DNA of 41,647 nucleotides from IMG/VR virus record IMGVR_UViG_3300020045_010930, positions 1 to 41,647 of that record; one strand, 5' to 3'. Below, piece after piece: positions 311 through 38,823 of this stretch. Each line of letters begins with the position of its first letter. The stretch's first letter is position 1. The notes beneath the pieces were generated by a model that worked only from the letters and a program-made list of their open reading frames with translations, was not told the DNA's origin and did no database searches. Made by a program: the position numbers and the translations under genes. The DNA comes from a virus. Lineage: Duplodnaviria; Caudoviricetes.

Positions 311-556
311 TTGAAACACCTAATCATATTATTCAGCACAGTAATTTTTGCTCAAAGCAATACGGTTGCTTCTGGTCACGATAATTATACGGTAGGAAGT
401 CAATTAGTCGAGCTGCAGATTCCTGTAGTAAAAAAAGACCCTGTGCTGTCTGTTCCAAAATATGAAATCCCTATCGAGCCGCCAAAGCCGATAGTTGAGA
501 AGAAGAAAAGTCTTTGGCAGAAACTAGTAATATTAATTAAAAATTTGTTCAAATGA
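311..556 (+). CDS. Small signal-peptide protein, homolog of 36572-36826
   Basis: MKHLIILFSTVIFA|QSN; shares LSVPKYEIPIEPPKPIVEKKKSLWQK with 36572-36826. Confidence 0.7.
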   Translation: MKHLIILFSTVIFAQSNTVASGHDNYTVGSQLVELQIPVVKKDPVLSVPKYEIPIEPPKPIVEKKKSLWQKLVILIKNLFK

Positions 557-819
557 ACTGGATCAAAAACAACATTTTGCCTTTATTGATTTTCGCTGTA
601 GGTTTCGTGGTAAACAACACCGAAATAGTGGTTGATTTCTTAAAAAAAATAGCTGCGCCCGATTGGACTTTTAAAGCCGTAAACACAATAGGTATGCTTT
701 GGGCTGCTTATTTACTTTTCAACTCTAAATCTGCAAAAATCAAAAAAGAGATTGAAGAGGCTTTACAGACAGAGCCTGAAAAGATTGGAGGAGGTGGCAT
801 TAAAAACCCGCCAAACTAA
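553..819 (+). CDS. Putative holin (2 TM)
   Basis: Two hydrophobic segments, charged C-tail, upstream of the endolysin. Confidence 0.5.
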   Translation: MNWIKNNILPLLIFAVGFVVNNTEIVVDFLKKIAAPDWTFKAVNTIGMLWAAYLLFNSKSAKIKKEIEEALQTEPEKIGGGGIKNPPN

Positions 820-821
820 AA

Positions 822-1157
822 ATGAAATTTTTTCTAAAAAAGACAATTTACTTACTTCCTATTTTTCTGATGGGGGTAAGTTTTTTGTCTATTTTTTTTG
901 AATTAAATTTTACTCTTTGGGGAAATATAGGAGGTTTTTCTCTAGTAACTGACGTTTTATTTTTTTATATTTTCTATTACGGAAATTATTGTGCTTTAAC
1001 AAAATCGATACCTATTGCATTGTTTTTTATAAACATATTAAACATTTATGGTTTTTACTTCCCTAAAAATTACAATCCTTGGTATGAAATTGCTGTTTTT
1101 TGTGTAATTTTGACAATAGCAATGATTTACGAACTTAATAGACGAATTTTTAAATGA
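822..1157 (+). CDS. Multi-pass membrane protein of the lysis cassette
   Basis: About four hydrophobic segments in 111 aa. Confidence 0.55.
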   Translation: MKFFLKKTIYLLPIFLMGVSFLSIFFELNFTLWGNIGGFSLVTDVLFFYIFYYGNYCALTKSIPIALFFINILNIYGFYFPKNYNPWYEIAVFCVILTIAMIYELNRRIFK

Positions 1158-1393
1158 ATCCAACACCACAAGAATTTAACTCGGTAATCTCCAACACAGA
1201 TGCCACTACTATAGGAGTTTTGTTAGCCATAGCACTAGCTTTTGGTTGGGTAATTATTTATTTATTTAAGGTAAATCAAGAGTTGCATAAAAAGTTCATT
1301 GAAGAATTAAAAGCCAGTAACGAGGCTTTGATAAAAGTAAACAATTTTCAGAATGATTTTGTGAATAATATGGTCAAACTTGAAAAAAAATAA
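1154..1393 (+). CDS. Single-TM plus coiled-coil protein (holin/antiholin candidate)
   Basis: TIGVLLAIALAFGWVIIYLF then helical charged tail. Confidence 0.5.
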   Translation: MNPTPQEFNSVISNTDATTIGVLLAIALAFGWVIIYLFKVNQELHKKFIEELKASNEALIKVNNFQNDFVNNMVKLEKK

Positions 1394-1478
1394 ACTATGT
1401 GTTTGCCAAAATCAGATATTGAACTAATTAAACAGCACAGGAAAATTATAAATTCGTTGCTAAAAACATTGATAAAAA

Positions 1479-2018
1479 ATGATAACTCAAAAAGACTTCG
1501 AAAACCTATCTACTGAATTCGGTATCGAAATACCAATGGTAAAAGCTTTGGATTTGGTCGAAAGTAATAGCCAAGGGTTTGATACGAAAACTGGTAAAAT
1601 AAAAATACAGTTTGAGCCACATTGGTTTAAGAAATTATCGAAGTCGATTTCAGGACTTTGGTCTGTAAATAAAGTTGATGTTCAGTCAAAAGAATGGGAA
1701 GCGTTTAATGATGCTTTTGACAAAAACCCAACGGTAGCAATGATGTCAACTTCTATCGGAAGAATGCAGGTTATGGGGTTTCATTATGCTAGACTAGGTT
1801 TTAAAACCGTTGGAGAAATGTGGGATTTTGCAAAAAAATCTGAACGTAATCAATTGTGGTTAGGTTTGAAGTTTATGACAACAGACCCCGCTCTTTACAA
1901 GGATATTCGAAACAAGTATTTCAAAGGAATAGCATACAGGTACAATGGCGTGAATTATTGGATTAAAGGCTATCACATTAAAATCGAAAAGGCTTATAAT
2001 TTATTCAAAAAACAATGA
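1479..2018 (+). CDS. Endolysin, N-acetylmuramidase (DUF3380-like)
   Basis: VES..GF, IQFEPHWF, STSIGRMQVMGFHY..LGF, AYRYNG.NY motifs. Confidence 0.85.
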   Translation: MITQKDFENLSTEFGIEIPMVKALDLVESNSQGFDTKTGKIKIQFEPHWFKKLSKSISGLWSVNKVDVQSKEWEAFNDAFDKNPTVAMMSTSIGRMQVMGFHYARLGFKTVGEMWDFAKKSERNQLWLGLKFMTTDPALYKDIRNKYFKGIAYRYNGVNYWIKGYHIKIEKAYNLFKKQ

Positions 2019-2467
2019 AAACTTTCATAAAAGAAAATTGGCAATTCCTGATAAGTGTATCATTGGCTTTTATCGTATGCCTTTTGCTTTGCAGTTGCGG
2101 TACTCGATCGACCAGCAAAGAATATCACGAAATAACTTCGAAGAACACATTCAATGATAGCTCTTTCATTTTAACTCAAAATGTTCGCTTAAACGATATA
2201 GGCGAACTTTTTCCGATTGATAACACGAAGCCTTTTTTTGTTGACGGAAAGCGGTACTTTAATGTTTCTATAAAATTCGATAAATCTAAATTCGAAGATT
2301 TAAAATTAGAACAGAAAAATATAGGCACAGTTACTGGTTCATCTGAAATTAAAAGCAATCAAGCCACAGACCGTACAGATAATACGATGCTATGGCTTGG
2401 GATGTTTTTGATAATGATGATTTCAATTATCGCTTATTTGGTATTGAAAAAATGGGGATTTGTTTGA
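2015..2467 (+). CDS. Lipoprotein with C-terminal TM, candidate unimolecular spanin
   Basis: Lipobox-like LLLCSC, C-terminal MLWLGMFLIMMISIIAYLVL, follows the endolysin. Confidence 0.65.
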   Translation: MKTFIKENWQFLISVSLAFIVCLLLCSCGTRSTSKEYHEITSKNTFNDSSFILTQNVRLNDIGELFPIDNTKPFFVDGKRYFNVSIKFDKSKFEDLKLEQKNIGTVTGSSEIKSNQATDRTDNTMLWLGMFLIMMISIIAYLVLKKWGFV

Positions 2468-2515
2468 GTAAATATAGAGAGAAGTTTCGAGTTGTAGGTA
2501 AGTTTAGAGCAACTT

Positions 2516-2536
2516 GCCTGCCGAAGTTACGCAGGC
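2516..2536. terminator. Hairpin between convergent transcription units
   Basis: GCCTGC-N9-GCAGGC. Confidence 0.4.
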
Positions 2537-2820
2537 TATTTTATTACCTTTAAACTATCTAATTTTATAGATTCTATTTTATCTTCCATAGAAAAATTAA
2601 AACCTGACGGCTTGTAATTATTTATGTTTTTAAGAAAAATATTTACGCTGTCTTTTGAATAAAAAACACGTTCTTTCTTTTCTTTAACCGTTTGTGCGTG
2701 ATAAACAGCACAAGAAATCATTGATCTGTTTTGTGTTCCAAATTCAGATATTCTATTTGCATCTGGGCAAGGAGCTGATTGTATAGAAACAACAATCCAA
2801 CTGATAATATATTTATACAT
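2536..2820 (-). CDS. Hypothetical cassette protein
   Basis: Start MYKYIISW at 2820 in AT-rich context; the track's extension reads through the repeat element. Confidence 0.6.
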   Translation of the reverse strand: MYKYIISWIVVSIQSAPCPDANRISEFGTQNRSMISCAVYHAQTVKEKKERVFYSKDSVNIFLKNINNYKPSGFNFSMEDKIESIKLDSLKVIK

Positions 2821-2835
2821 AATTCGTGATTTAAA

Positions 2836-2936
2836 AAACCCACCTACAGCAATATATTGTAGCAAGTAAGGCTTTGGTTATTATTGTGATCTTTAAATTG
2901 CCATTTTACGGTAAAATTTACTTGCACAATCATATT
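2836..2936. repeat. Degenerate attC-like element 1
   Basis: ACCTACAGC core, then arms AATATATTGTAGCAAGTAA (2851-2869) / TTACTTGCACAATCATATT (2918-2936) pairing with two single-base bulges; no GTT core on the right. Confidence 0.5.
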
Positions 2937-3010
2937 TTAAAATATTGATTAATAGTTATTTAAGATATGGCGTTATAGCGGTTAGCATGTAGTTAGTATC
3001 AAGACTATGT

Positions 3011-3091
3011 TTACTTTTCAAAGTAATCTTTCCTTATTTTTATAATGCAAATTATTAGCAAAAAGATATAGAATAAACCTACAACATTCAT
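3011..3091 (-). CDS. 26-aa hydrophobic peptide in a mini-cassette
   Basis: MNVVGLFYIFLLIICIIKIRKDYFEK*, preceded by AAAATAAAATT; not in the ORF track. Confidence 0.45.
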   Translation of the reverse strand: MNVVGLFYIFLLIICIIKIRKDYFEK

Positions 3092-3135
3092 AATTTTATT
3101 TTTTATAATTAACATTTGTTTTTTTAATCCGTACA

Positions 3136-3222
3136 GCTACTAACAGCAGTCTTGAACTACCGCCAAAATCTCGTAACCGCATAGGTGGCAGTACAAGGCT
3201 ACAAAACGTTAGTGACAACCGC
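3136..3222. repeat. attC-like element 2
   Basis: GCTACTAAC, arms 3146-3164 / 3184-3202 (14/19 Watson-Crick), AAAAC, GTTAGTG at 3208. Confidence 0.7.
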
Positions 3223-3568
3223 CCACAATCATCGTAAAATGTTCACGACAAACATAAGCTGTTAAGTTATGGCGCATTCTGTCGGGGTCGTCCGATGGAA
3301 TTTCTTCTCCTAATTTATTGGTTGCATCTTTTCCGCAAACTGAACAAATCTCTCCTTTACAACTTCCAGAAATAAAATAAGGTGCAAATAATTCTAATGC
3401 TTTTGGTCTTTTGAAAGTATCAAATCCAATAGTTTTTATTTGTACATTTTGAGGGAAATAAGTATAATAACTTCTTTGAGGTATCCATCCATATTCGTCC
3501 ATAAGTCCGTTGGCTATGTCAAAATAATTTCCAAAAACTTCTTGTAATATTTCTTTAGGTGGTAACAT
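3209..3568 (-). CDS. Hypothetical cassette protein with C-terminal CxxC...CxxH
   Basis: Start MLPPKE at 3568; stop TAA lies inside the GTTAG core of element 2. Confidence 0.6.
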   Translation of the reverse strand: MLPPKEILQEVFGNYFDIANGLMDEYGWIPQRSYYTYFPQNVQIKTIGFDTFKRPKALELFAPYFISGSCKGEICSVCGKDATNKLGEEIPSDDPDRMRHNLTAYVCREHFTMIVGGCH

Positions 3569-3600
3569 ATAAATAGTTTTTAAATTAATAATAAGTGGTA

Positions 3601-3702
3601 TGCTGATAACATATGATAAGAGCAATTTGCAGACGTTTAGTCCTTCGATTCAGCTTTTGTAGTAGCAAACTGCTCCTATCATCAGCCGTTAGCAGATATA
3701 GC
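3601..3702. repeat. attC-like element 3
   Basis: GATAAC, arms ATGATAAGAGCAATTTGC (3613-3630) / GCAAACTGCTCCTATCAT (3665-3682) 16/18, CAGCC, GTTAGCAG at 3688. Confidence 0.75.
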
Positions 3703-3715
3703 TACAAAATCGTTC

Positions 3716-4240
3716 CTAAACGAAATTAATATCCGCTTCGACTTCTTCATAGATATATTCTAATTCCAATTGGCTTAATAAATCATCCATTTTCATTTTT
3801 GAATTACCGCCAGTCACATAATTATCGTAATTGTTTTGTCTATGAAACTCAAATAATTTACTCTTATTTACATCCAAAACAGCCTGTGCTTTTCTTTCTA
3901 AAAAAGAACCTTTCTCGTAAAAACTGCTATCTAAAATAATATCTTTCAAAACTTCAATAGTTCTTGAAGTAGGTTTAAAACTGCTATCAAAAGAAACATC
4001 GTTTATTACAGTTCCGTTGTCTATTCCATTTTCCATTACAATATACATTTCTCCTTGCATTAATTCGGAAGTGACTGTAAAGTAATGTGTATATTGCAAT
4101 TGATTGTGTTTTTCTATTGATTCATCAATATAACAGTGAAATTTTTTGTTTACTTTATCCCATTTAGAATCTCCTTTTTCTACAATTTCATTTAGTAAAT
4201 CTTCGTAGTATTTTGATTCTTGAAATTTTTCTATATTCAT
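3716..4240 (-). CDS. Hypothetical acidic cassette protein
   Basis: Start MNIEKF at 4240; flanked by 15-bp inverted cassette ends. Confidence 0.7.
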   Translation of the reverse strand: MNIEKFQESKYYEDLLNEIVEKGDSKWDKVNKKFHCYIDESIEKHNQLQYTHYFTVTSELMQGEMYIVMENGIDNGTVINDVSFDSSFKPTSRTIEVLKDIILDSSFYEKGSFLERKAQAVLDVNKSKLFEFHRQNNYDNYVTGGNSKMKMDDLLSQLELEYIYEEVEADINFV

Positions 4241-4261
4241 CACGTTTAGTTTTAAAAACCC

Positions 4262-4409
4262 GCTACATCTGCTAACAGCTAGTAAGCAATAGTCGTGCAA
4301 TAGGCTTGATTTATAAATTTGTTTGTATTTGTTGTGTTTTTGCTAGACCGAAAGTTTAGGTATATTTAGCACGACCATCGCCTACTAGCGGAACGTTAGT
4401 GACAACCGC
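4262..4409. repeat. attC-like element 4
   Basis: ATCTGCTAAC, arms 4278-4298 / 4369-4389 18/21, GGAAC, GTTAGTG at 4395; 4392-4409 identical to 3205-3222. Confidence 0.75.
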
Positions 4410-4438
4410 TAGTGTAAAAATAAATATTAGCCACATAA

Positions 4439-4708
4439 TTACTCGGTTATTTTCGTTAGTAGTTGCCTGATTTCTAAATCTGTATCGCTTACAAAAACAT
4501 TATTGAATGCTATTTTTTTCAACATTTCAAACATTTCTGGAGCTGCTACGATTAGTTTTGCGTTGGCTTGCATTTCTGTTTTTGTCACGCTTGAAAGATC
4601 ATATCCCCATATATCGCATATCGCTTTACTATAAGATACATTTACACAACATCTTGTTTCTCTAATTTCTAATTCCCACTTCCCTTTCGTTCCTTTAAAA
4701 TCTTTCAT
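4439..4708 (-). CDS. Hypothetical phage protein (FKGTKGKW...ANAKLIVAAPEM type)
   Basis: Motif common in small phage early proteins. Confidence 0.7.
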   Translation of the reverse strand: MKDFKGTKGKWELEIRETRCCVNVSYSKAICDIWGYDLSSVTKTEMQANAKLIVAAPEMFEMLKKIAFNNVFVSDTDLEIRQLLTKITE

Positions 4709-4709
4709 A

Positions 4710-4874
4710 TCAATTATTCTTAACAATTAACGGTTCAACAACTTCAATATCATTGACATCTTGCATTGCGACTATATGAAATGCACTAATCATTCTATTG
4801 TTGTCGTGCAAAAACTGATTATTCATTGCTTTCATCCAAAGATAAAATCGTTCTACGTTTGAGATTTGTTTCAT
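4710..4874 (-). CDS. Hypothetical protein, homolog of 39707-39871
   Basis: MKQISNVERFYLWMK...; 54 aa, not in the track, conserved in the second copy. Confidence 0.7.
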   Translation of the reverse strand: MKQISNVERFYLWMKAMNNQFLHDNNRMISAFHIVAMQDVNDIEVVEPLIVKNN

Positions 4875-5083
4875 TTTGATTTAAGGTATTCGTGAGTAGT
4901 TATTTTTGAAACTAAAGTAAGCCTAGATTTTAAAGAAACTAGACGGTGCTTGAATTCTCCGACAACTGCCGAATTATTCAATACCCAAGACACTTTGTCT
5001 TGTTCTTTTTTGAATTCTTTTAATCTTTTGATATTGTCTTGCAACAAAATCAGCTCCATTTCAAGCAGTTCTAATTCTTTCAT
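4871..5083 (-). CDS. Hypothetical coiled-coil protein
   Basis: ORF track; 4-bp overlap with the next gene. Confidence 0.6.
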   Translation of the reverse strand: MKELELLEMELILLQDNIKRLKEFKKEQDKVSWVLNNSAVVGEFKHRLVSLKSRLTLVSKITTHEYLKSK

Positions 5084-5085
5084 AA

Positions 5086-5271
5086 TTAATCGTTTTTGAA
5101 TGTTTCGTTGTAGTATGTTTCAGAGCTTGAATACACAGGATATATAACATTTCCTTCGTCCCAAGCATCAATAATCTGCTGTTTTTCTTTTTCGAGATAT
5201 TCTTCCATTCCAAAAAGCTCTAACCCGTCTTTCTTTAAAACCTCTATCAATTCTTGCATTGCTGTTTTCAT
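5086..5271 (-). CDS. Hypothetical phage protein (KTAMQEL...EKEKQQIIDAW type)
   Basis: ORF track; N-terminus shared with 39868-40062. Confidence 0.7.
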   Translation of the reverse strand: MKTAMQELIEVLKKDGLELFGMEEYLEKEKQQIIDAWDEGNVIYPVYSSSETYYNETFKND

Positions 5272-5465
5272 AACGTTTCTTTATAGATTTCTAAAAGTTG
5301 TTTTGTGGTTTTTCCATTGACTTCTCGAAGAGTTCTTTCTCCGTACCAATTCAAAAAACCAATAGCGAAGTTTTCTGCTATTTCTGCACATTTTTTAGAA
5401 GCATCAGGATCGTCTACAAACTCTGAAAACTGCATTTCGTTAAAATATTGCTGTTCTAATTTCAT
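5268..5465 (-). CDS. Hypothetical protein, homolog of 40059-40244
   Basis: AENFAIGF...LLEIYKETL in both copies. Confidence 0.7.
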   Translation of the reverse strand: MKLEQQYFNEMQFSEFVDDPDASKKCAEIAENFAIGFLNWYGERTLREVNGKTTKQLLEIYKETL

Positions 5466-5650
5466 TTCGATTGAGTTTTAAATTGTTTTAAATAATTATC
5501 GATTTCGCTTTGCTGAATACGTTTTGTAAATCCAAAAACAACCGTTTTTATTTGCTTTTTGTCAATCAACTTGTATAATGTAGGTCTGCTAATACCTATC
5601 ATTTCGGCAGCCTTTTGCAAAGATACGCCCCTGTCTATTTCTTTTTCCAT
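5462..5650 (-). CDS. Excisionase-like HTH DNA-binding protein (HTH_17 type)
   Basis: SLQKAAEMIGISRPTLYKLI...IKTV..G..KRI...EI. Confidence 0.8.
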   Translation of the reverse strand: MEKEIDRGVSLQKAAEMIGISRPTLYKLIDKKQIKTVVFGFTKRIQQSEIDNYLKQFKTQSK

Positions 5651-5673
5651 TTGATTTGGTTTTAAATTCTTTA

Positions 5674-5704
5674 CAAAGATATACAACTTTTTTACATTTA
5701 CAAA
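5674..5704 (-). promoter_or_regulatory. Leftward Bacteroidota-type promoter
   Basis: TTTG-N19-TATCTTTG on the minus strand. Confidence 0.75.
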
Positions 5705-5715
5705 TTTTTACACTT

Positions 5716-5734
5716 ATTTAAAATTAATATAAAT
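5716..5734. promoter_or_regulatory. Palindromic ATTTA-N9-TAAAT box
   Basis: 34 nt from each divergent -7 element. Confidence 0.55.
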
Positions 5735-5745
5735 AGTTTACAAAA

Positions 5746-5776
5746 TTTGCATATCCAAAAAACATCATTATCTTTG
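5746..5776 (+). promoter_or_regulatory. Rightward Bacteroidota-type promoter
   Basis: TTTG-N19-TATCTTTG; -7 region conserved at 40562. Confidence 0.75.
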
Positions 5777-5800
5777 TCGAAACAAAAAATAATAGAAATT

Positions 5801-6052
5801 ATGATGCTAGGCAATTTATCTGTTAAACAGATTGAAGAAAGGTTAGGAATTGAGTTTCCTGAAAATATCAGAGAGTTTATGAAAAATACTCATAATCCAA
5901 ACGCAAGTAATATTTCAATAGGTAAATGGCATTGTTTCGATTTGCCATTTCATATCGTTTGCGGAGATTTGGAAACAGCTACTAAAATTTACGAATCAGT
6001 AAAAGATAGGTCAAAAGAATGTAAAGAAGCTTTACGATTTTCAATAAAATAA
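5801..6052 (+). CDS. Hypothetical protein, N-terminus SMI1/KNR4-like
   Basis: QIEERLGIEFPENIREFM; ATG at 5801 downstream of the promoter. Confidence 0.55.
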   Translation: MMLGNLSVKQIEERLGIEFPENIREFMKNTHNPNASNISIGKWHCFDLPFHIVCGDLETATKIYESVKDRSKECKEALRFSIK

Positions 6053-6060
6053 TAGAAATT

Positions 6061-6294
6061 ATGGAAGAAAATAGAAAACCGAGTAATCCTGACTTATATA
6101 AAGGCGCTGTTGGTATGATTGAAGACAGAGTTACGTTAAGAGATTATTTCGCAAATAATGCGATGCAGTCTGTAATTAGAAAGTATAATGGTACCAAATC
6201 GGACAGCTATAATCTTGATTCAGAAGACGCGGAAGCTATTGCAGATTATAGCTACGAAATCGCCGATGCAATGCTAAAACAACGTGAATTATGA
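6061..6294 (+). CDS. Conserved phage protein (TLRDYFA...Y.IADAML type)
   Basis: Recognisable widespread phage motif. Confidence 0.75.
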   Translation: MEENRKPSNPDLYKGAVGMIEDRVTLRDYFANNAMQSVIRKYNGTKSDSYNLDSEDAEAIADYSYEIADAMLKQREL

Positions 6295-6533
6295 GCCTAG
6301 ACACCCACGACTACCACAACCCAGATGCTCCTTGGAATCAAATAGAAGTTGAAGCAGAAATTGAAACAGGTTATAAAGACATGACAGAAGCATACGAAAG
6401 CGGAGACGAAGATGTTTTTAAAGAAAAACAAAATGAGTGCCTAGATATGGCGCAAGAAATTTACGATGTTCTAAAATCGCTTGACAGTGGTTTGGTTCGT
6501 AAAATGCAAAAATTAATAGATAACTTAAAATAA
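6291..6533 (+). CDS. Hypothetical acidic protein, homolog of 40594-40830
   Basis: YHNPDAPWNQIEVEAEIETGYK in both copies. Confidence 0.75.
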   Translation: MSLDTHDYHNPDAPWNQIEVEAEIETGYKDMTEAYESGDEDVFKEKQNECLDMAQEIYDVLKSLDSGLVRKMQKLIDNLK

Positions 6534-6540
6534 AATAATT

Positions 6541-7059
6541 ATGGATTTGTCAAAAACAATTATCCCAAAATCAGACCAATTAAATGCAGATGATTTAATA
6601 TCAGGATCAAAAACTATCAAAATTCGTGAAGTAAAAGCTGGAGCAGACGAAACGCAACCAGTAGCTATTTATTTCTATGGCGACAACAACAAGCCTTTTA
6701 AACCTTGCAAGTCTATGCGTAGGGTTTTAGTTCAGTTATGGGGGGCAGATGGGTTGCAATATATAGGGCACAGATTGACAATATATCGTGAAAATAGTGT
6801 AAAGTGGTCAGGGGTTGAAGTGGGTGGGATTAGAATTAGCCACGCTTCACATATTGCAGAGCCAACACGTGTTCTTGTTACGATATCAAGAAATAAACGT
6901 GTACCTATTACTATTGATATTTTACCATTGGTAGAATTAAAAGATTTGGCAGGCGCAAGAACAGCTATCAAAGATAAAAAAGCAACTCTTTCTGCTATTT
7001 TAGAAAAGTACGACTTGACGGCTGAACAATTAAAAACTTTGCAAGATGAAACAGTCTGA
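6541..7059 (+). CDS. Conserved phage protein, putative ssDNA-annealing/recombination factor
   Basis: SDQLNADDL, KPCKSMRRVL, VGGIRISH; beside exonuclease and SSB; replaced by a Sak-like gene in copy 2. Confidence 0.55.
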   Translation: MDLSKTIIPKSDQLNADDLISGSKTIKIREVKAGADETQPVAIYFYGDNNKPFKPCKSMRRVLVQLWGADGLQYIGHRLTIYRENSVKWSGVEVGGIRISHASHIAEPTRVLVTISRNKRVPITIDILPLVELKDLAGARTAIKDKKATLSAILEKYDLTAEQLKTLQDETV

Positions 7060-7186
7060 CCAAATAGGATGCGGATATTGTGATAAAGAAAAAACGTGTA
7101 AAATCCGTGACCCTAAAATCAACAAAGCAAAACTAGACTGTAAAGAATTTAAACATTATTCAAAAGATGGAAATAAAAAAATTTAA
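7046..7186 (+). CDS. Small four-Cys protein
   Basis: MKQSDQIGCGYCDKEKTCKIRDPKINKAKLDCKEF..., 46 aa, fills the intergenic gap. Confidence 0.5.
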   Translation: MKQSDQIGCGYCDKEKTCKIRDPKINKAKLDCKEFKHYSKDGNKKI

Positions 7187-8018
7187 ATGCAGAGCGTCAA
7201 AGATTGGTATCTTAATGACTAATCATTCTGGAAAATCGTATAAAGAACAGTATGATGATGCCTTGTCGAAAAAAGAATCTTTAAACATCAGGCTGTCTGA
7301 ATTCAAAAACAAAGAATGTAAAACAGCTTTGCAAATTGTTAACGAAAAATTACCAGAAACGGATAAAGAAATCGAAAGATTAAAGCCTTTGATTGACGAA
7401 GTAATATTAAGCGAAAGCACAAAATCATACTGCAAAGAATGGCTTATTTCTGAAATCACAGGAAAACAAAAAGACATTCGATCAAAATATCTTTCACGTG
7501 GAAAAGCAATGGAAGAAGCCGCGATTAAACGAATTGCTAAACATTACGGCTGTGAACTGGTAAAAAACGAAATTCAGTTAGAAAATGAATATTTCACAGG
7601 AATGTTTGATACAAAAAATACCGATACGGTTATTGATGCTAAAGTTCCATTTGATTGCTTTACTTTTCCTTTTTTTGTATCAATAATTGACCCTGATTAC
7701 TACGGACAACTACAAGGATATATGAACTTGACAGGGTTAAAAAAAGGTAGTCTTTGCTATTGTTTAGAAAATGGTAGCGAAGAACAAATAGACAAATTAT
7801 ATTGGCAAATAGCCAAAGATTTAGGAAAAGATGAGCCAGATATTGAAGAGTGGGATTTAGCAGAAAATCAATTAAACTACGATAATTTGTCGGATGAATT
7901 ACGTATAAAAACTTTTGAGTTTGGATATGATGAAGATTATATTAATAGGGCTGAACAAATGGTTTTAGCTTGTAGAAAGTACATTAAAGAAGAATTATTA
8001 ACACAAATTAAATTTTAA
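7167..8018 (+). CDS. YqaJ/lambda-exonuclease-like nuclease
   Basis: RASKIG, RG..ME, FTG..D....DAK, YYGQLQGYM.LTG. Confidence 0.75.
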   Translation: MEIKKFKCRASKIGILMTNHSGKSYKEQYDDALSKKESLNIRLSEFKNKECKTALQIVNEKLPETDKEIERLKPLIDEVILSESTKSYCKEWLISEITGKQKDIRSKYLSRGKAMEEAAIKRIAKHYGCELVKNEIQLENEYFTGMFDTKNTDTVIDAKVPFDCFTFPFFVSIIDPDYYGQLQGYMNLTGLKKGSLCYCLENGSEEQIDKLYWQIAKDLGKDEPDIEEWDLAENQLNYDNLSDELRIKTFEFGYDEDYINRAEQMVLACRKYIKEELLTQIKF

Positions 8019-8020
8019 AA

Positions 8021-8359
8021 ATGTCAAAAATCACAATTACATTAGACGCAACTAAATTGAGAAATTTAGTAACAAAAAGAGAGTTCGATGCAAAAGACGG
8101 AACTAAAATGCAAGTTCAAGAAGTTAGATTTGAATTAGTAGAAATAAAAGAACCTAAAATAATTCACGAAGGTAGCGGTTACAAATTGCAAAAATCACAT
8201 TTCGCAAGCGTAATTCAAACCAAAGAAGAACGAGAAGCAAAAGCCGAAACAATTTTCATTGGCGAAGGAATTACTACTTTGTGGGACAAAAAAGAAGAGG
8301 TTTTTAATGCTGTTCCTGTTTCAGAAAGTCAAGAAGAACCTGATGATTTACCATTCTGA
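8021..8359 (+). CDS. ssb: ssDNA-binding protein
   Basis: Beta-rich, acidic tail ending DDLPF, in the recombination module. Confidence 0.7.
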   Translation: MSKITITLDATKLRNLVTKREFDAKDGTKMQVQEVRFELVEIKEPKIIHEGSGYKLQKSHFASVIQTKEEREAKAETIFIGEGITTLWDKKEEVFNAVPVSESQEEPDDLPF

Positions 8360-11546: not shown

Positions 11547-11595
11547 TACATTTGTAATAACAAAATAAGCCAGTTTAATTATTGGCTTTTGTTTT
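11547..11595 (+). promoter_or_regulatory. Promoter -7 element followed by a terminator-like hairpin
   Basis: TACATTTG, then AAGCCAGT/ATTGGCTT plus T-rich tail. Confidence 0.45.
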
Positions 11596-11618
11596 AATTA
11601 AAAACTAAACATTGTAAA

Positions 11619-11768
11619 ATGGCAAAAGAAATTAGAAAAGACCTTTATACTCAAAGTAATTACGCTAAAAAAATAGGCGTAACACGGGCTAGGGTTAACC
11701 AAATGGTTAAGGCTGGAGAACTGAAAACGGTTTCAGTAAATGGTGGTATTTTAATAAAAATAGCTTAA
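11619..11768 (+). CDS. Small HTH protein upstream of the replication gene
   Basis: TQSNYAKKIGVTRARVNQMVKAGELKTV, 49 aa; not in the track. Confidence 0.7.
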   Translation: MAKEIRKDLYTQSNYAKKIGVTRARVNQMVKAGELKTVSVNGGILIKIA

Positions 11769-11805
11769 TTTTTTTAGCTAAAAACACTTAACAAAGTTAA
11801 CATAA

Positions 11806-14040
11806 ATGGATAAATCATTTTTAAAAAGACTTATAGATTCTAACTTATCTATCATACCAGTATCATTAGATAAAAGGCCTTTTGGGGCTTGGAAAAAATG
11901 GCAAACCGAGGCCAGAACAAAAGAGGACATTGACAAACTTGAAAGCCCACTTTATGGTATCGTAACTGGATATAATAATGTTGAGGTTATCGATGTTGAT
12001 TTGAAAGTTTTCGCAACGCTACAAGAACAAAACGACTTCTGGAGCGAATTTTTATCTTTCCTAAAAGATAATATTGATGATTTTGATAAGAAATTTGTAA
12101 TTTATAAAACAAAAAACCAAGGGTATCACATTTTATACAAGTGCGAAACTATCTCAGGAAATACAAAAATAGCAAACTTAAAAGGAATTAAAGAGGCCGT
12201 AATAGAATCCAGAGGTATAGGCGGGATGGTTGTAATTTATGACAATCAAATTTCAAAGTTGGCCTATTCTGAAATTCAAACTATTACGCCACGTGATAGG
12301 GATATAGCCTGGGGAATTGCTAAAACCTATAATTATATTGATGAGGCCGTAATCGAAAAACCAAAAGTAAAAGGCCAAGAATTGAACGAGGCCATAATAA
12401 CACCTTGGGATGACTATAATTCAAAGGTTAGTATTTTTGATTTAATATCAAGTGAATTGAAAATAGTTAGAACATTAAACGATAGGTATATTTTAAAACG
12501 TATTGGATCGGAACATCCAATGTCAGGAAGTGTTTTTAAATCAAATGGGTGTATGTATCTTTTTTCTACTGGGACTTCTTGGGAAAACGAAAAACTTTAC
12601 AGTCCTTTTACAGCATACAGCCGTTATTATCATAAAGATGACCATACAGCGGCCGCAAGTGATTTGTACAAAAAAGGATACGGCACACGGTTTGTCGGTA
12701 AAAAAGTTGATGTAGAAAAACGAGAAGTACCTAAAATAAATAAAGACGATTTAGTTTTTCCTATCGATATATTCCCAGAACCAATACAGGCCTATATTTT
12801 AGAATGTAAGGATACTTTGGATAGTTCAGTAGATTATATGGGATGTTCTATGCTTTGGTTAATTTCCGTTATTGTTGGTAATTCAATTCAAATTGAAGTA
12901 AAAAAAGGGTGGACTGAAACAGCTACTATTTGGTTGGCCGTTGTTGGTAAAGCTGGACTCGGAAAAACACCGAGTATCCACAATATAATTAAGCCTTTGT
13001 TAATGGCCAACAATAAGGAAATTAAAAAATACATAAAACAATCTGAAAAATATGAGTATTACGATAAATTATCGGCCAAAGAAAAGAAAGACCACGAAGA
13101 AATTCAAAAGCCAACTAAAAGCCAATTTATAGCCAATGATATTACTATTGAGGCTTTAGTAGAACTACACCAAGAAAACCCTAATAGTGTGGGGGTTTTT
13201 AAAGATGAGTTGGCAGGATGGTTTAAGGATATGAATAAATATAGAGAGGGTTCAGATTTAGAATTTTGGCTATCTACTTGGAGCGGTAAAGCTATTTCAT
13301 TGAACCGTAAAACGGCCAAATCCGCTTTTGTAGATAAACCGCTTGTTTCTGTTCTTGGTGGAATACAACCGAGCATATTAAATGCTTTTTATACCGATGA
13401 CAACAAGGATAATGGATTTATGGATAGGATGCTTTTGTCATACCCTGATTTAGAGATTGAAAAATGGAATGATAAAGAAATGGATTATAATACAATTCAA
13501 TGGTATCAAGATTCTATAATTTCATTTTACGAAACCATAAAACACAAAGTAGTCCAATATGATGAGGATGGAGATATTAAACCGCAAACGGCCATTATAC
13601 CACCTGAAAGTAAAAAGGAATGGATTAGGGTATTTAATGAATATACAGCCATTCAAAACTCGGATGCCGAAAATGAATATATGAAATCTATGTTGCCTAA
13701 ACAAAAATCCTACTTACCAAGGTTCGCTTTATTGATTAATACTATGGATAGTTTTTTTGATGACACACATAAAATGGACGCTCGGTCAATATCTAAAGAA
13801 TCTATTTTAAAGGCCGAGAAAGTTTCAAAGTATTTTATAGCTATGGCCAAGAAAATTAAAGTTAATTCAGTGGAAACTCACGAAATTAAAACAATAATAA
13901 CGGCCAATAAAACCAAATCAAACAAAGAGAAGTTTTTAGAATTGTATAAAATTAATCCAGAATTGGATAAAAAAGAAGTGGCCGAAATACTTGGAGTTTC
14001 ATTACAAATGATATACAAATACGTAAAAGAGGCCAAGTAA
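11806..14040 (+). CDS. Primase-polymerase (AEP) fused to DUF3987-like P-loop helicase, C-terminal HTH
   Basis: KRP..AWK.WQ, IDVD, T...GYH; Walker A GKAGLGKT, Walker B DELAG; KEVAEILGVS. Confidence 0.85.
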   Translation: MDKSFLKRLIDSNLSIIPVSLDKRPFGAWKKWQTEARTKEDIDKLESPLYGIVTGYNNVEVIDVDLKVFATLQEQNDFWSEFLSFLKDNIDDFDKKFVIYKTKNQGYHILYKCETISGNTKIANLKGIKEAVIESRGIGGMVVIYDNQISKLAYSEIQTITPRDRDIAWGIAKTYNYIDEAVIEKPKVKGQELNEAIITPWDDYNSKVSIFDLISSELKIVRTLNDRYILKRIGSEHPMSGSVFKSNGCMYLFSTGTSWENEKLYSPFTAYSRYYHKDDHTAAASDLYKKGYGTRFVGKKVDVEKREVPKINKDDLVFPIDIFPEPIQAYILECKDTLDSSVDYMGCSMLWLISVIVGNSIQIEVKKGWTETATIWLAVVGKAGLGKTPSIHNIIKPLLMANNKEIKKYIKQSEKYEYYDKLSAKEKKDHEEIQKPTKSQFIANDITIEALVELHQENPNSVGVFKDELAGWFKDMNKYREGSDLEFWLSTWSGKAISLNRKTAKSAFVDKPLVSVLGGIQPSILNAFYTDDNKDNGFMDRMLLSYPDLEIEKWNDKEMDYNTIQWYQDSIISFYETIKHKVVQYDEDGDIKPQTAIIPPESKKEWIRVFNEYTAIQNSDAENEYMKSMLPKQKSYLPRFALLINTMDSFFDDTHKMDARSISKESILKAEKVSKYFIAMAKKIKVNSVETHEIKTIITANKTKSNKEKFLELYKINPELDKKEVAEILGVSLQMIYKYVKEAK

Positions 14041-14275
14041 ATTTTAAACCATTTTAAACTAGGTTTAAAGCTGCGAAGCCTTATAAACACAAGCGATTAA
14101 GCCACTTTAAACCAGTTTTTAGTTTAAAGTATAAAAATTAAAAAAAAGTTAGATAATTTTTAAAAAAAATGGTTTTAAACCAAAAAAGTTTAAAATCGGT
14201 TTAAAAACCAATGATAGCAAAGGATTACAGCTTTAAACTAGGTTTAAAATTAGTTTAAAAAGTTTAAAAATTAAA
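14041..14275. repeat. Candidate replication origin (TTTAAA iteron-like cluster)
   Basis: Non-coding; many TTTAAA units; TTTAAACTAGGTTTAAA at 14053-14069 and 14232-14248. Confidence 0.6.
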
Positions 14276-14290
14276 ACATACAAAAAAACT

Positions 14291-15523
14291 ATGAAATTAA
14301 GACAATATCAAATAGAAATATCGGAAAAAGCACACGAAATATTACAGCGTTTGAAAATTGTTTATTTATGTTGTGAGGTTAGAACAGGAAAAACATTAAT
14401 GGCTTTAGAAACTGCAAAACTTTACGGCGCATTAAATGTTTTATTCTTAACTAAAAAGAAAGCTATTGATTCGATTTTAAAAGATTACAGGGCTTTAAAT
14501 TATCAGTATGAACTAACTGTTATAAATAACGAAAGCGTTCATAAGATAACAGAAAAATACGATTTGATTATTAGTGACGAACATCATAGAAACGGTGCAT
14601 TCCCTAAACCAAACAACGCTACTAAAATCATTAAAGAAAAGTTTTCACATTTGCCAATGATTTTTTTAAGTGGAACGCCTACTCCAGAAAGCTACTCTCA
14701 AATTTATCATCAGTTTTGGTTATCTAATTACACGCCGTTTAAAGATTATAATAATTTTTATAAATGGGCAAAAGATTACGTTAATGTTAAAAAACGATAT
14801 TTAGGATATGCAGAAGTAAATGATTATTCAGATGCCTATCAGGAACGCATAAAAAAATTAACTCAAAAATATATGATTACTTTCACACAGGAACAAGCAG
14901 GATTTGAAACGAAGGTACACGAAACTATTTTAGAGGTTGAAATGAAACCAATAATTTACAACATTTCAAAAGCTTTGAAAAAAGATAAATTATTTAAGGG
15001 TTCTACCGATATGATCTTAGGAGATACAGCTGTTAAACTTATGAGTAAATTACACCAGCTTTATTCAGGAACTTGTATTTTAGAAAGTGGTAATGGGATT
15101 GTTTTGGATAATTCTAAATTAGTTTTTATTGATAAAAAGTTCAAAAACAATAAGATTGCAATCTTCTATAAGTTTCAAATGGAACTTGAAATGATAAAAG
15201 GATTTTACGGCGATGATGTCTGCTTTGATTTAGAAACATTCGATACTACTGATAAAAACATAGCTTTGCAAATTGTTTCAGGACGTGAGGGAATAAGTTT
15301 GAAAAATGCAGATTACTTGATTTATTTAACGCCTGATTTTTCGGCTACTTCTTATTGGCAATCACGTGATCGTTTAACAACAATGGACAGAAAAGAAAAC
15401 AATGTTTTTTGGGTTTTCGCTAAACAAGGAATTGAAAATTATATTTACAAATCGATAATGAGTAAAAAAAATTATACATTATCACAATTCAAAAAAGACT
15501 ATGGCATCAAGTTTTCAAACTAA
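14291..15523 (+). CDS. Superfamily 2 helicase
   Basis: LRQYQ, VRTGKT, DEHH, LSGTP, GREGISL, QSRDR. Confidence 0.85.
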   Translation: MKLRQYQIEISEKAHEILQRLKIVYLCCEVRTGKTLMALETAKLYGALNVLFLTKKKAIDSILKDYRALNYQYELTVINNESVHKITEKYDLIISDEHHRNGAFPKPNNATKIIKEKFSHLPMIFLSGTPTPESYSQIYHQFWLSNYTPFKDYNNFYKWAKDYVNVKKRYLGYAEVNDYSDAYQERIKKLTQKYMITFTQEQAGFETKVHETILEVEMKPIIYNISKALKKDKLFKGSTDMILGDTAVKLMSKLHQLYSGTCILESGNGIVLDNSKLVFIDKKFKNNKIAIFYKFQMELEMIKGFYGDDVCFDLETFDTTDKNIALQIVSGREGISLKNADYLIYLTPDFSATSYWQSRDRLTTMDRKENNVFWVFAKQGIENYIYKSIMSKKNYTLSQFKKDYGIKFSN

Positions 15524-15773
15524 GACGATTAAAAATTACGAATCTAACGGATGGACAGTATTAAAAATAATAAATCTTTCAGACAATGGTTATCCAGATT
15601 TATTATGTATGAAATTAGGAGAAAAAGATAATTGGATTGAATGCAAAGAAGGAAAGGACACTCTTAAGGAACTGCAAAAATTTCGTATTGACGAATTAAA
15701 TAAATTAGGTAAAATAGCTTTTTGCCTTCACGACAAACAAGGTCTAATTTACCCTAACAATATCGAGTTATAA
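15501..15773 (+). CDS. VRR-NUC / PD-(D/E)XK nuclease
   Basis: GYPDLL...WIECK...L.ELQ. Confidence 0.8.
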   Translation: MASSFQTKTIKNYESNGWTVLKIINLSDNGYPDLLCMKLGEKDNWIECKEGKDTLKELQKFRIDELNKLGKIAFCLHDKQGLIYPNNIEL

Positions 15774-16799: not shown

Positions 16800-18112
16800 T
16801 AAAGTTTTCTGAAAAATATAAACCTCTTTTTTATTTATTAGATGCAAAAAAAGAATATGAAAACGGAAACGAAAAGTATAAAGAAGAATCGGGAGTTGAT
16901 ATTGTTTTAATTTCAGGCGGTAGGGATTCAGGAAAAACATTTGGAGCTGGTGTAATGATTGCAACCGCTGCCGATTCTTACAGCCATAGAGTTCTTTATA
17001 CTCGTTACACGATGTCAAGTACAAACAACTCCATCACACGTGCGCTTGACAACAGAATGGAGTTATTGCAAATAACAGATAATTTCAATTTCGCTAACAA
17101 CGATTATAAATCAAAACACGGCAAAGGATTGATTTCTTTGACAGGGCAAAAAACAAGTTCAGGAGAGCAGACTGCTAAATTAAAGTCAATTGAAGACTAT
17201 TCAATATTTGTAACAGAAGAAGGCGAAGAACTTACTTCTTATGAGGAATGGGAAAAGATTAAACGATCCATTAGAGCAAATGATGTTCAGTCGTTATCAA
17301 TGATTATTTTCAACCCGCCTACAAAAGACCATTGGCTATATCCGCAATTCTACCAAGGTGTACCTGATGGATTCAACGGGATCATTGGAAATGTGATGTA
17401 CATTCACACCACCTACCAAGACAACGGAAGGGAAAATATGGCGCCGCATAACTGGAATGAATACGAAAGATTGAGGTTAGTTTATGAATATTGGTTAGCT
17501 AATCCAGCCACAACTGACAAAAAAATAATCAAAGAAGCAAAGAATTATAAAAATACAGTACTTGGAGCGTTTCGAGATATTGCCGAAGGAGTTATCTTTG
17601 ATTACGAAATTGGAGAATTCAACCCTGACAATCTACCTACTACCTTTGGGATGGATTTTGGTTTTATTGATCCGATTACATTAGTTGAAGTAGCCATCGA
17701 CAACAAAAGAAATATTGCATACGTTAAGCAACATCTTTACAAAAGCGGAATACTTGCCGAAGATGCTTATGATTTGATTAAAGATATTGTTGGACTGAAA
17801 TTAATATTAGCCGATGCGCAAAAGATTGACGATATTACACGTTTGCAAAATCTTGAGTTAAACATTGAAAAATGTTTTAAAGGCGGTGGATTAAATGGGT
17901 CTAGTATATTGCCTGGAATAAAAGCGATGAAGAACTTTGATATTATTGTCGAACCAAGTAGCACAGAACTAATTCACGAATTTAATAATTATTGTTGGGA
18001 CATCCGAAAAGTTGAAACTCCAAAAGCAGGAAACGACCATCTTATTGATGCGGTTCGTTATGTTATTTATGACAATGAAATTAACGCTAATTCAGAATTA
18101 TGTTTAGGATAA
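16796..18112 (+). CDS. terL: Terminase large subunit (PBSX-like)
   Basis: GGRDSGKT, EEGEE, FNP, GMDFGF.DP, DHLIDAVRY. Confidence 0.92.
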   Translation: MIKFSEKYKPLFYLLDAKKEYENGNEKYKEESGVDIVLISGGRDSGKTFGAGVMIATAADSYSHRVLYTRYTMSSTNNSITRALDNRMELLQITDNFNFANNDYKSKHGKGLISLTGQKTSSGEQTAKLKSIEDYSIFVTEEGEELTSYEEWEKIKRSIRANDVQSLSMIIFNPPTKDHWLYPQFYQGVPDGFNGIIGNVMYIHTTYQDNGRENMAPHNWNEYERLRLVYEYWLANPATTDKKIIKEAKNYKNTVLGAFRDIAEGVIFDYEIGEFNPDNLPTTFGMDFGFIDPITLVEVAIDNKRNIAYVKQHLYKSGILAEDAYDLIKDIVGLKLILADAQKIDDITRLQNLELNIEKCFKGGGLNGSSILPGIKAMKNFDIIVEPSSTELIHEFNNYCWDIRKVETPKAGNDHLIDAVRYVIYDNEINANSELCLG

Positions 18113-18534
18113 AAGATTTAAGAGCAGGAGAATTTATAGATATCGACAATTATTATCGAGAATTTGAACAAGGAAGTAATGAACACGAAAAAGACTTTTT
18201 TACTATATTTGGTTTAGAAATTCCAAAAACAGAAGCAGATTATTTAATTTTCTTTGAACAATACCACGCTCAAATACTGGAAATTAAAGTAAGTTTTGAA
18301 TTTATTTACAACCCACCGCCCTTGCCTTCTACACTAAATAAAGAAGGCAACACCATTGGCGATGAGTACCGAAAAGAATTTGCAGAAATGTATGGAGGTT
18401 ACGTTCAAAATATTTATTTAGTTTCGATTAATTTTCGTAAATTGCCAAACGAAATACTAGAAATGAACGTAATGGATTTTCTTTTCTGGGCGAATTATTT
18501 ACTTCATCAGAAGTGGTGTGAACAAATAAAATAG
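18100..18534 (+). CDS. Hypothetical protein (possible assembly chaperone)
   Basis: L..GEFIDID; first gene of the morphogenesis block. Confidence 0.55.
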   Translation: MFRIKDLRAGEFIDIDNYYREFEQGSNEHEKDFFTIFGLEIPKTEADYLIFFEQYHAQILEIKVSFEFIYNPPPLPSTLNKEGNTIGDEYRKEFAEMYGGYVQNIYLVSINFRKLPNEILEMNVMDFLFWANYLLHQKWCEQIK

Positions 18535-18859
18535 AAATACATTTGGCATTCGGCTTTATTGGTTCTGAAATTTCAGAAGCTACACTTTTTGAATCCGCAA
18601 AAAATCATTTAGAAAAAAGACTTGAAATAGATTTAAAAATATTGTCTATCGATCTTTTAGAAGAAAAAAATGGAGGACAAACAAGGGTTTATAATGTTGA
18701 TTTCGAACAAATAAAGTAAATTATGAAATTCAAAAGAAAGCAATTTAGAGTATTTAATATAAACTATTGTAAAAAAGAAGACGCTTTATTTAGTGTTCGA
18801 AATGGATATAGAAAAAGTATTTTATTATTTGGATGGTATTTTTATAAAGCGAATAAATT

Positions 18860-19312
18860 ATGTTTTCAAAAGTAACAAACTACATCGTAAATAGATTTCA
18901 ACAGGATGAAATGGTACACACTATTTCATTTAGTGATATTAATTTGATTGATACTAAAAAAGAAAACATTTACCCGTTAGTTGCTATTTCATTTAACGAA
19001 AAAGATTTATCTGTTGACGATACAGCCACTTATGATTACACTATTACGGTTCTACAACAACGTGACAATCGAAAAGTTGAGAAGCCAAGCAAGTTAATGG
19101 AAGATGAAAATTGGATTGACAATTTAAACGAATGTGATTCTATTTGCACACGCTTCATAAATCACATTAGACGAATGGAAATTGACGAAAACATAAACAT
19201 AGACTCTATTTCAGTACTCGAACCATTAAGCGGATACGGTGGTGCTAATTTAGATGGATTTAGATTTGAAATAACATTGGCAATTCCTAATACAGGGTAT
19301 TGTGGCGTATAG
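18860..19312 (+). CDS. Putative tail completion/terminator protein
   Basis: About 150 aa, acidic, YPLVAI motif, next to gp10-like genes. Confidence 0.5.
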   Translation: MFSKVTNYIVNRFQQDEMVHTISFSDINLIDTKKENIYPLVAISFNEKDLSVDDTATYDYTITVLQQRDNRKVEKPSKLMEDENWIDNLNECDSICTRFINHIRRMEIDENINIDSISVLEPLSGYGGANLDGFRFEITLAIPNTGYCGV

Positions 19313-36572: not shown

Positions 36573-36826
36573 TGAAAATTATAATCATACTTCTTTTCTG
36601 CTTTTCAATCCAAGCACAGGAAAGCATAGTAGCAAGCGGGACTGATACATACACAATAGGCGAAATGTTTCCAATAATGCAACAGGATATGAAACAAAAA
36701 GAAGTTTCTCTTTCAGTACCGAAATATGAAATCCCTATCGAACCGCCAAAGCCGATAGTTGAGAAGAAGAAAAGTCTTTGGCAGAAAATAATTGAAGCGT
36801 TTAAAAAAGTGTTTAAAATCGTTTAA
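36572..36826 (+). CDS. Small signal-peptide protein, homolog of 311-556
   Basis: MKIIIILLFCFSIQA|QES; shared C-terminal block. Confidence 0.7.
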   Translation: MKIIIILLFCFSIQAQESIVASGTDTYTIGEMFPIMQQDMKQKEVSLSVPKYEIPIEPPKPIVEKKKSLWQKIIEAFKKVFKIV

Positions 36827-36855
36827 AAAGTATTTAAATTTAAAACTATATTAAT

Positions 36856-37077
36856 ATGAAAACAAGATGGATTACGTGGCTTATTACCATAGGCGCAGGA
36901 ATTGATCAGATTTACGGTGTAATTGCCGAAAACGCTGGTCTTTTAGTAGAAATTGGAGTATCTCCAAAAGTAACAAAAATTATTTTAGTTGTAGGTATAA
37001 TTTGGAATGCTTTTTCAAAAAGCTTAACTCCAAAAGAGATTCAAAGCATTGGATTGCCGAAACCGCCAAAGCCTTAA
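36856..37077 (+). CDS. Putative holin
   Basis: Two hydrophobic segments; position equivalent to 553-819. Confidence 0.5.
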   Translation: MKTRWITWLITIGAGIDQIYGVIAENAGLLVEIGVSPKVTKIILVVGIIWNAFSKSLTPKEIQSIGLPKPPKP

Positions 37078-37081
37078 TTAA

Positions 37082-38243: not shown

Positions 38244-38314
38244 CCCGCCAAACCATCATTGAATCAATAATTTGGATTGTCGCAATTTCTGCGATTTTGT
38301 ACCTATATTTATAA
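38240..38314 (+). CDS. 24-aa hydrophobic peptide
   Basis: MTRQTIIESIIWIVAISAILYLYL*, ATGA overlap with the endolysin stop. Confidence 0.35.
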   Translation: MTRQTIIESIIWIVAISAILYLYL

Positions 38315-38364
38315 AGTGCCCCACCGCATTCGCTACAGTGCTGCACTATAAAAAACTTAAAACA

Positions 38365-38817: not shown

Positions 38818-38823
38818 TCTAAT

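Follow-up and report, generated by a model that had tools for sequence, protein, structure and literature searches.

Avoidance of restriction sites in phage genomes has been treated in PMC6286503 and PMC12707154 and, in their accessible parts, these papers and PMC9516812 are limited to avoidance and viral methylation. Orphan methylases have site clusters at origins, as described for Dam GATC at oriC, CTCGAG in Nocardia, TTAA in Arthrobacter and the clusters at haloarchaeal orc1/cdc6 (PMC4752239), while the nearest published case inside coding sequence is the pac site of phage P1 (PMC10028697). In phage SPP1, a programmed break drives the theta-to-sigma switch (PMC3485210). In the literature that we searched, mainly the main texts of open-access papers, islands of restriction sites on the replication genes of phages are not described.

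Here we analyze a window of 41,647 nt, the whole of the viral record IMGVR_UViG_3300020045_010930, which is a 41.6-kb tailed phage. Avoidance as treated in PMC6286503 and PMC12707154 accounts for the 39 kb of the window without GGCC and for its lack of CCGG, CGCG and CATG. However, avoidance predicts loss everywhere, and the window presents the opposite in an essential gene, where the avoided site shows an approximately 20-fold local excess. The locus resembles the orphan-methylase clusters in that a short palindrome of the methylase type is packed beside replication genes. Yet those clusters, as presented in PMC4752239, are found in non-coding DNA at the origin and go together with an orphan methylase that is conserved, whereas the phage islands are coding, cover 2-6 kb, skip the iteron array and are made of a word that is purged elsewhere; besides, they are found in some lineages only, their motif switches, and the matching host methylases come with nucleases. 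With P1 pac the window shares methylase sites within phage coding sequence that synonymous recoding can remove. P1 pac, for its part, is a 161-bp stretch with seven fixed hexamers on the packaging gene pacA and has a known reader (PMC10028697), while the window has 19 shifting sites on a replication gene, ending 2.5 kb from the terminase genes (before position 16530, on the terminase side), and in the sampled relatives the terminase genes are without islands.

A computed scan found 19 GGCC sites in the window, all of them inside the primase-helicase gene and none in the remaining 39.4 kb (Table 1). They are exactly the 19 positions listed by the first-pass annotation, a reading of the letters by a model, and the scan added no further site. 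The island extends from codon 24 to codon 743, with 8.5 sites per kb across the gene. Base composition predicts 1.65 sites there, in line with the one or two that had been estimated. One could argue that local GC content or plain codon bias is the cause, and both were ruled out: the gene has a GC content of 0.328 and the rest of the window 0.331, and the claimed excess held against synonymous codon shuffling within the gene, with a mean of 4.1 sites and a maximum of 12 in 10,000 shuffles, so that 19 was never reached. With codons drawn from the rest of the genome, the same gene had 0.96 sites on average and never more than 5 in 3,000 draws. Regarding the other called genes (35,373 nt), they contain no GGCC versus 18.6 +/- 3.9 expected, the minimum among 300 shuffles being 10. 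According to these values, two effects are at work, a purge outside the gene and an excess of about 20-fold inside it.

Seventeen of the sites fall in the frame xxG-GCC, with alanine as the second residue, and the two others encode Arg-Pro and Gly-Gln. The claim that most sites arise from synonymous choices needs a correction: the codon before GCC is ATG (Met) in two of these 17, which are thus not purely synonymous, and amino-acid changes accompany some sites. Residue 743, for example, is Ala in the window and Leu, Ile or Phe in 14 aligned relatives, and the protein of the window contains 38 alanines versus 21-32 in 20 island-free alleles. GCC makes up 21/38 of the Ala codons in the island gene and 72/684 of those elsewhere in the window, and 17 of the 28 X-Ala pairs that could be converted are used as sites. 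A longer motif around GGCC was ruled out, given that the flanking bases vary, with only GGNCC avoided and no fixed extended repeat around the core. Fixed spacing or helical phasing was not significant (R 0.135, p about 0.08, on non-independent distances).

Table 1. Features of the replication region and of related genes in the window (positions in the 41,647-nt stretch; a dot marks features to which strand does not apply)
Feature	Position	Strand	Remarks
RecE-like recombination exonuclease	7167..8018	+	0 GGCC
Exchanged replication cassette (HTH, primase-helicase, iterons)	11556..14260	+	77-80% identical to L003, L004, L090
HTH gene, 49 aa	11619..11768	+	start of swapped cassette; 0 GGCC, sister alleles 1-4
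Primase-polymerase/helicase, 744 aa	11806..14040	+	Prim-Pol residues 9-154, DUF3987 residues 341-684
GGCC island	11876..14034	.	19 palindromic sites, spacing 17-285 nt
AT-rich (78%) repeat array, 250 nt, 13 TTTAAA	14041..14290	.	predicted replication origin
SF2 helicase	14291..15523	+	outside cassette; 0 GGCC; 91% DNA identity to island-free sister genome L258
VRR-NUC-like nuclease	15501..15773	+	below Pfam cut-off

The Prim-Pol and DUF3987 matches confirm that the island gene is a primase-helicase, as had been read from the letters; a C-terminal HTH match is weak and below the cut-off. The repeat array contains no GGCC and is found at the same place in relatives, with different repeat units in each lineage. 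Since it lies directly behind the primase gene and its units differ by lineage as iterons do, we infer that it is the replication origin, which agrees with the earlier proposal of a cluster beside an origin. Searches with PF00145 and PF01555 detected no phage methyltransferase in the window, as the first-pass annotation had held. The gene at 25615-26667 was rejected as a methylase: a PHROG labelled “DNA methyltransferase” matches residues 42-177, a protease PHROG covers the same stretch, and the gene sits among head genes. The PF00589 search gave no tyrosine integrase in the window, and control of lysogeny was set aside with none in five of five near-complete records. The gene at 6541-7059, which precedes the RecE-like exonuclease, matches only families of unknown function. 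The VRR-NUC-like nuclease is a candidate for a host-independent source of breaks or for junction resolution.

GGCC is not the only avoided word, a correction to the first-pass annotation: CCGG, CGCG and CATG are avoided too, with 0 versus 40 expected, 4 versus 39.5 and 15 versus 73, respectively, and so is GATC. The cultured Flavobacterium phage elemoF contains no GGCC, CCGG, CGCG or CATG across the 50 kb read, and this complete purge indicates that these words are restriction targets of such phages. The window's primase allele follows the avoidance of its own genome, with no CATG, no CCGG and one GATC, while sister alleles retain 4-10 CATG, 2-5 GATC and 3-4 CCGG.

Motif islands on replication genes are a family trait, shared with uncultured relatives that are likely to infect Flavobacterium. 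Such islands, of GGCC or CGCG, were found on unrelated primases, on SF2 helicases and on recombination genes beside an iteron-like array, and none was found on packaging or structural genes among the relatives sampled. All five dereplicated primase alleles with at least 85% identity, including that of the window, carry 9-19 GGCC; among the 23 at 74-85% identity, two have 7-8 and 21 have 0-1. The complete relative G002 has 24 of its 26 GGCC within 3.2 kb (the HTH gene, the primase and two genes past the iterons) together with a CGCG island on recombination genes 5-6 kb from the primase, and no methylase was detected in it by PF00145 or PF01555. Three further records, G041, G040 and L048, have 24/25 GGCC in 5 kb, 18/22 GGCC in the helicase and 14/14 CGCG in the primase, respectively, and G042 has 43/56 CGCG in a 5.6-kb block of recombinase-like, exonuclease, SSB, primase, helicase and VRR-NUC genes. 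The SF2 helicase alleles of four records contain 18, 14, 10 and 10 GGCC and those of six others 0-1; two of the four rich ones adjoin an unrelated primase family, and the helicase tree fits a single island gain as well as several. Regarding methylases, five other island-bearing records encode N6/N4 enzymes, and G041 encodes a C5 methylase whose similarity to M.HaeIII is only distant. This recurrence on other replication genes and with a second motif is something that the first-pass annotation could not see. Among the sequencing runs listed, there was one DNA run with a small share, whose contigs are relatives that bring no new information, and no RNA run.

From loci whose GC content does not exceed 40%, we screened the non-redundant ORFs for enrichment in any of 12 palindromes. 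Twelve of 1,852 ORFs passed P<1e-4, all of them replication or recombination genes, in loci that were gathered around replication and terminase genes and include related, non-independent alleles. Among ORFs of at least 300 residues, 13/206 replication genes versus 1/257 others passed P<1e-3; the classes were assigned by hand, the lone “other” ORF is a primase by Pfam, and one of the clusters placed in the replication class turned out to encode a methylase. No ORF of the terminase clusters was among the enriched genes. Apparent CATG and GANTC islands (L018, L017, L015 and also L002) were rejected, since the counts within the gene come close to neutral and the purge is confined to the flanks. 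In L084, L195 and L239, the excess of CCGG is only 3- to 4-fold and sites are also present in the flanks. Finally, no cultured example came up: in 10 annotated phage records, of which five were covered over only about 50 kb, the replication block showed no clear island. The marine T4-like isolate HTVC008M has no GGCC array over gp5. Phage phi38:1 presents a mild excess, with 11 GGCC in the polymerase gene, a CCGG peak in FL-1 is a tandem repeat and not an island, and Fpv5 is rich in CCGG along its whole genome (139 versus 27 expected from composition).

The first-pass annotation had offered a recent import as one origin of the island. Between 11556 and 14260 the window follows the three relatives named for the cassette in Table 1, and from 14284 onwards it follows L258 at 85-91% identity, a genome with a different primase allele and no GGCC in it. 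The island edges coincide with this change of closest relative, so the import of an HTH-primase-iteron module accounts for the edges. What it does not explain is the enrichment: a donor rich in GGCC turned up neither in 262 long non-replication genes nor in 40 host stretches, a sample made of contigs reached through replication and terminase genes plus these stretches, which hold 0.2-1.5 GGCC per kb and at most 8 in any window of gene length.

One could argue that biased repair or conversion, or a GGCC-rich lineage outside our sample, made these alleles and that cassette swaps moved them into motif-avoiding genomes without any benefit, an account to which we give rather little credit. The swap itself is consistent with it, and so is the fact that islands often stop at gene borders, as in L268, where the helicase has 14 GGCC and a primase fragment none. 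The near-neutral CATG and GANTC counts of L018, L017 and L015 mark those cases as plain un-purged imports, and the genome-wide richness of Fpv5 indicates that, for one other motif at least, there are donors rich in it; both Fpv5 and FL-1 have about twice the CCGG of codon-shuffled controls. Besides, the islands are short of GGTC/GACC, on which Vsr-type repair would act as precursor (10 versus 20.9 expected), and the sequence outside them is not (ratio 1.04), which makes a Vsr-like contribution possible. Vsr repair makes an inner-C change. Most of the sites at invariant X-Ala pairs, however, cannot come from that change, and the other one-off neighbours of GGCC are mostly enriched or neutral rather than depleted, as decay and regain would leave them. 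Density also argues against an origin without selection: the top value among 262 long non-replication genes is 4.3 GGCC per kb (4-5 sites), whereas 8 of 201 replication genes reach 5.4-10.9, and the relatives of the window's terminase are not enriched in GGCC. Finally, the window allele lost CATG and CCGG, words that its own genome avoids, but not GGCC.

The island is likely kept by selection. In four disjoint sister pairs, with both directions pooled, site-making bases were kept in 41/54 and 47/65 comparisons, versus 146/384 and 17/63 for control synonymous bases (Fisher P 2e-4 and 4e-4 on halved counts), that is, retention was 2 to 2.7 times that of the controls. A directional mutation or repair process would mimic such retention. 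Individual positions turn over: 36 were used across six alleles, five are common to all four alleles of the window's clade, and seven are used by the window allele alone. It is thus the number of sites, rather than their position, that is held. According to these results, the recurrent island on replication genes is real and probably selected, the proposal of a functional cluster gains weight from site bases held above the synonymous background, and a link of this selection to host methylation seems to us quite likely.

Which host enzymes could act on the sites depends on a host that we infer, since the window has only distant homologues, at 51-65% identity, in assemblies labelled Flavobacterium, Flavobacteriales, Psychroflexus, Mucilaginibacter, Bacteroidetes and one Sphingomonadaceae bin. 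A search for the M.HaeIII-like family detected methylases in 7 of 251 genomes of the likely host genus, and the methylase matches M.HaeIII at E 4e-125. All seven adjoin a nuclease, five of the HaeIII type and two of the NgoPII type. GGCC restriction-modification pairs therefore occur in this genus. When prophages were sought, close homologues turned up in only 1 of 401 genomes of the host family, namely the seed genome itself.

The sites might be read through their methylation, with a host methylase marking the array and a protein of the phage or the host reading full versus hemi-methylation to time origin firing or the expression of replication genes, in the manner of Dam and SeqA at oriC and of Dam at P1 pac. 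We regard this as doubtful. There are precedents in the conserved motif clusters of orphan methylases at origins in four prokaryote groups (PMC4752239) and in the seven GATC repeats that P1 pac holds within coding sequence (PMC10028697), and the usable codon pairs are close to saturation, which suggests an advantage of having more sites. GGCC as a target of cytosine methylation is backed by the M.HaeIII match. Both clearly enriched motifs, GGCC and CGCG, are typical targets of this kind. On the other hand, the iteron array of the window lacks the site, the intergenic stretches of nine island relatives hold only two, and the distances show no clear helical phasing. No methyl-reading domain was detected among the window proteins scanned, and the reader would need to change its specificity between lineages. 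The HaeIII-type methylases of the genus are rare and paired with nucleases rather than conserved orphans, and no GGCC cluster was found at host dnaA or gidA in 40 stretches of 20 kb from 20 genomes, which may miss the true oriC. A reader like Dam/SeqA is therefore unsupported, and the analogy with GATC at oriC in the first-pass annotation is a weak one, the sites being coding and the methylases rare and paired.

Methylation could also act as camouflage, in that dense methylcytosine made by the host across the replication block would weaken defences that are independent of sequence and sensitive to methylation, for example DISARM, whose DrmAB loads on single-stranded replication intermediates. 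The ATPase activity of DrmAB is lower on DNA with three 5-methylcytosines and DISARM is activated at the onset of replication (PMC9142583), and genes of the DrmB family are present in 11 of 251 genomes of the genus, where the scanned loci were confirmed to contain both DrmA and DrmB, and one of these loci also a DrmMII-like methylase. Yet in the primary study (10.1101/2021.12.28.474362) restriction rose by as much as 12-fold when unmethylated motifs were added, and protection depended little on the methylase genes. The 11 DrmB genomes and the seven with a HaeIII-type methylase do not overlap, which says little, as an overlap would be rare by chance. Camouflage also gives no account of why replication genes alone would be marked, and we consider it improbable. 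As for signals for the phage's own primase or helicase, used in priming or loading, a palindrome would offer a site on both strands and the island adjoins the predicted origin. This we judge very unlikely, given that 21 of the 23 primase alleles at 74-85% identity have 0-1 sites, that unrelated primase families have the motif in common, and that the motifs are words fully purged by elemoF in 50 kb.

Existing readers could be shown only for the host pair, namely its methylase and its nuclease, and we therefore favour, at a probability of roughly 0.3, a reading in which the island, next to the predicted origin, is a confined zone where a host GGCC restriction enzyme cuts, and in which the cut sets off recombination-dependent replication; every step of it beyond the presence of the sites is conjecture. 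The lineage would live in a host with a GGCC restriction-modification pair, so that incoming DNA would be methylated and safe. DNA near the origin, copied first and most often, might outrun the host methylase and would occasionally be unmethylated on both strands, and the host enzyme could then cut one daughter arm within the island. The DNA end would be taken by the RecE-like exonuclease and by putative annealing proteins of the phage, and would start recombination-dependent or rolling-circle copying into concatemers, that is, packageable DNA, as the break does in SPP1. Clustered cuts would act as one break and leave a 39-kb piece whole, while a scattered site would be only an added risk of death and would be purged. 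Any four-base cutter would serve, which would fit the switch between GGCC and CGCG. SPP1 is the model for the window in that its break occurs near a defined locus and is processed by a phage exonuclease and a recombinase into concatemers; it differs in relying on its own roadblock, G38P at oriR, and on the resolvase G44P (PMC3485210), whereas the use of a host enzyme in the window is our proposal.

A host-enzyme cutting zone accounts for the purge outside the island, the clustering, the holding of number over position, the switching of motifs and the lack of a phage methylase. It accounts poorly for islands that are one-sided and bounded by genes. The siteless helicase that adjoins the predicted origin and the CGCG island of G002, 5-6 kb off, indicate that gene-wise inheritance fits better than distance from the origin. 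Three further observations speak against programmed cutting: 19 sites mean full sensitivity if the phage arrives unmethylated, hosts carrying the GGCC pair make up about 3% of the sampled genomes, and most relatives manage without an island, as the 21 alleles with 0-1 GGCC do.

To a lytic phage, restriction sites are regarded as nothing but a liability, and the window contrasts with this, with a site purged from 95% of the genome yet enriched and retained in an essential replication gene. The purge, the local enrichment and the recurrence across unrelated genes and with a second motif indicate that some force favours the targets of host restriction-modification there, and the candidates for this force may be exploitation of a host cutter, a methyl-reader or a local repair bias of a kind not described so far. 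Most sites being silent, synonymous recoding can separate the signal in the DNA from the function of the protein. For an uncultured phage, the island also serves to predict the restriction-modification system of its host. Tentatively, we propose that phages may have evolved arrays of host sites on their replication genes, with the host enzyme as a methylation-timed switch, and that this may have arisen more than once with different enzymes, for GGCC and for CGCG. If true, a defence would have been turned into part of the phage replication cycle.

Besides its GGCC island, the relative G002 carries another one, made of CGCG: nine of 11 CGCG sites fall on recombinase-like and YqaJ exonuclease genes, at a distance of 5-6 kb from the GGCC island. 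Another relative, G042, a 63.7-kb record, has two replication modules placed back-to-back, with primase families that differ between them; a CGCG island is found on only one of the two modules.

In the cultured phage mumin9-1, six of the seven CCGG sites lie inside a single DNA methyltransferase gene. Fpv5 shows an excess of CCGG across its whole genome, with 139 sites versus 27 from composition, and this genome contains no CGCG and a single CATG. Regarding phi38:1, its DNA polymerase gene holds 11 GGCC sites and the first 14.5 kb account for 42 of 85 sites, so that GGCC is slightly enriched across the replication region.

DrmAB pairs, components of the DISARM defence, are present in the Flavobacterium-type host genomes (L388-L394). 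Considering ORFs of at least 200 residues, a C5 methylase adjoins only one of the seven DrmAB loci and a type I system adjoins another, while an unassigned protein of ~800 residues precedes most of them.

Phage L005, with a GC content of 27%, contains a GC-rich element of ~170 nt with one copy on either side of a single ORF.

Both ends of the window are divergent copies of one another (446-6543 versus 36710-40840), with 77-98% identity over six matches of 52-408 nt each, and there are two lysis cassettes, one with a muramidase and the other with a GH19 enzyme. The record may represent a ~36.5-kb circular genome with read-through into a copy from a sister strain.

Coordinates of features in the window, its relatives and cultured phages
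Feature	Record	Positions
Muramidase (lysis cassette)	window	1479-2018
GH19 enzyme (lysis cassette)	window	37701-38243
Iteron array	window	14041-14290
Second (CGCG) island	G002	17868-18975 (L004 3619-4726)
Replication modules of G042	L019	1445-5094 and 10001-13922
GC-rich element	L005	~640-790 and ~1240-1390
DNA methyltransferase gene	mumin9-1 (L396)	1649-2305
DNA polymerase gene	phi38:1 (L352)	6311-8209
Whole genome	Fpv5 (L397)	

Finally, the iteron array of the window and the equivalent stretches in L002, L017, L020, L048, L084 and L268 keep a constant layout, while the unit differs by lineage (TTTAAA, GTGACA, TTGAAC, GTGAAC, GTGCAA, TGTCAA and GTTACA). Lineage-specific units in one layout constitute a natural series for initiator-origin specificity.
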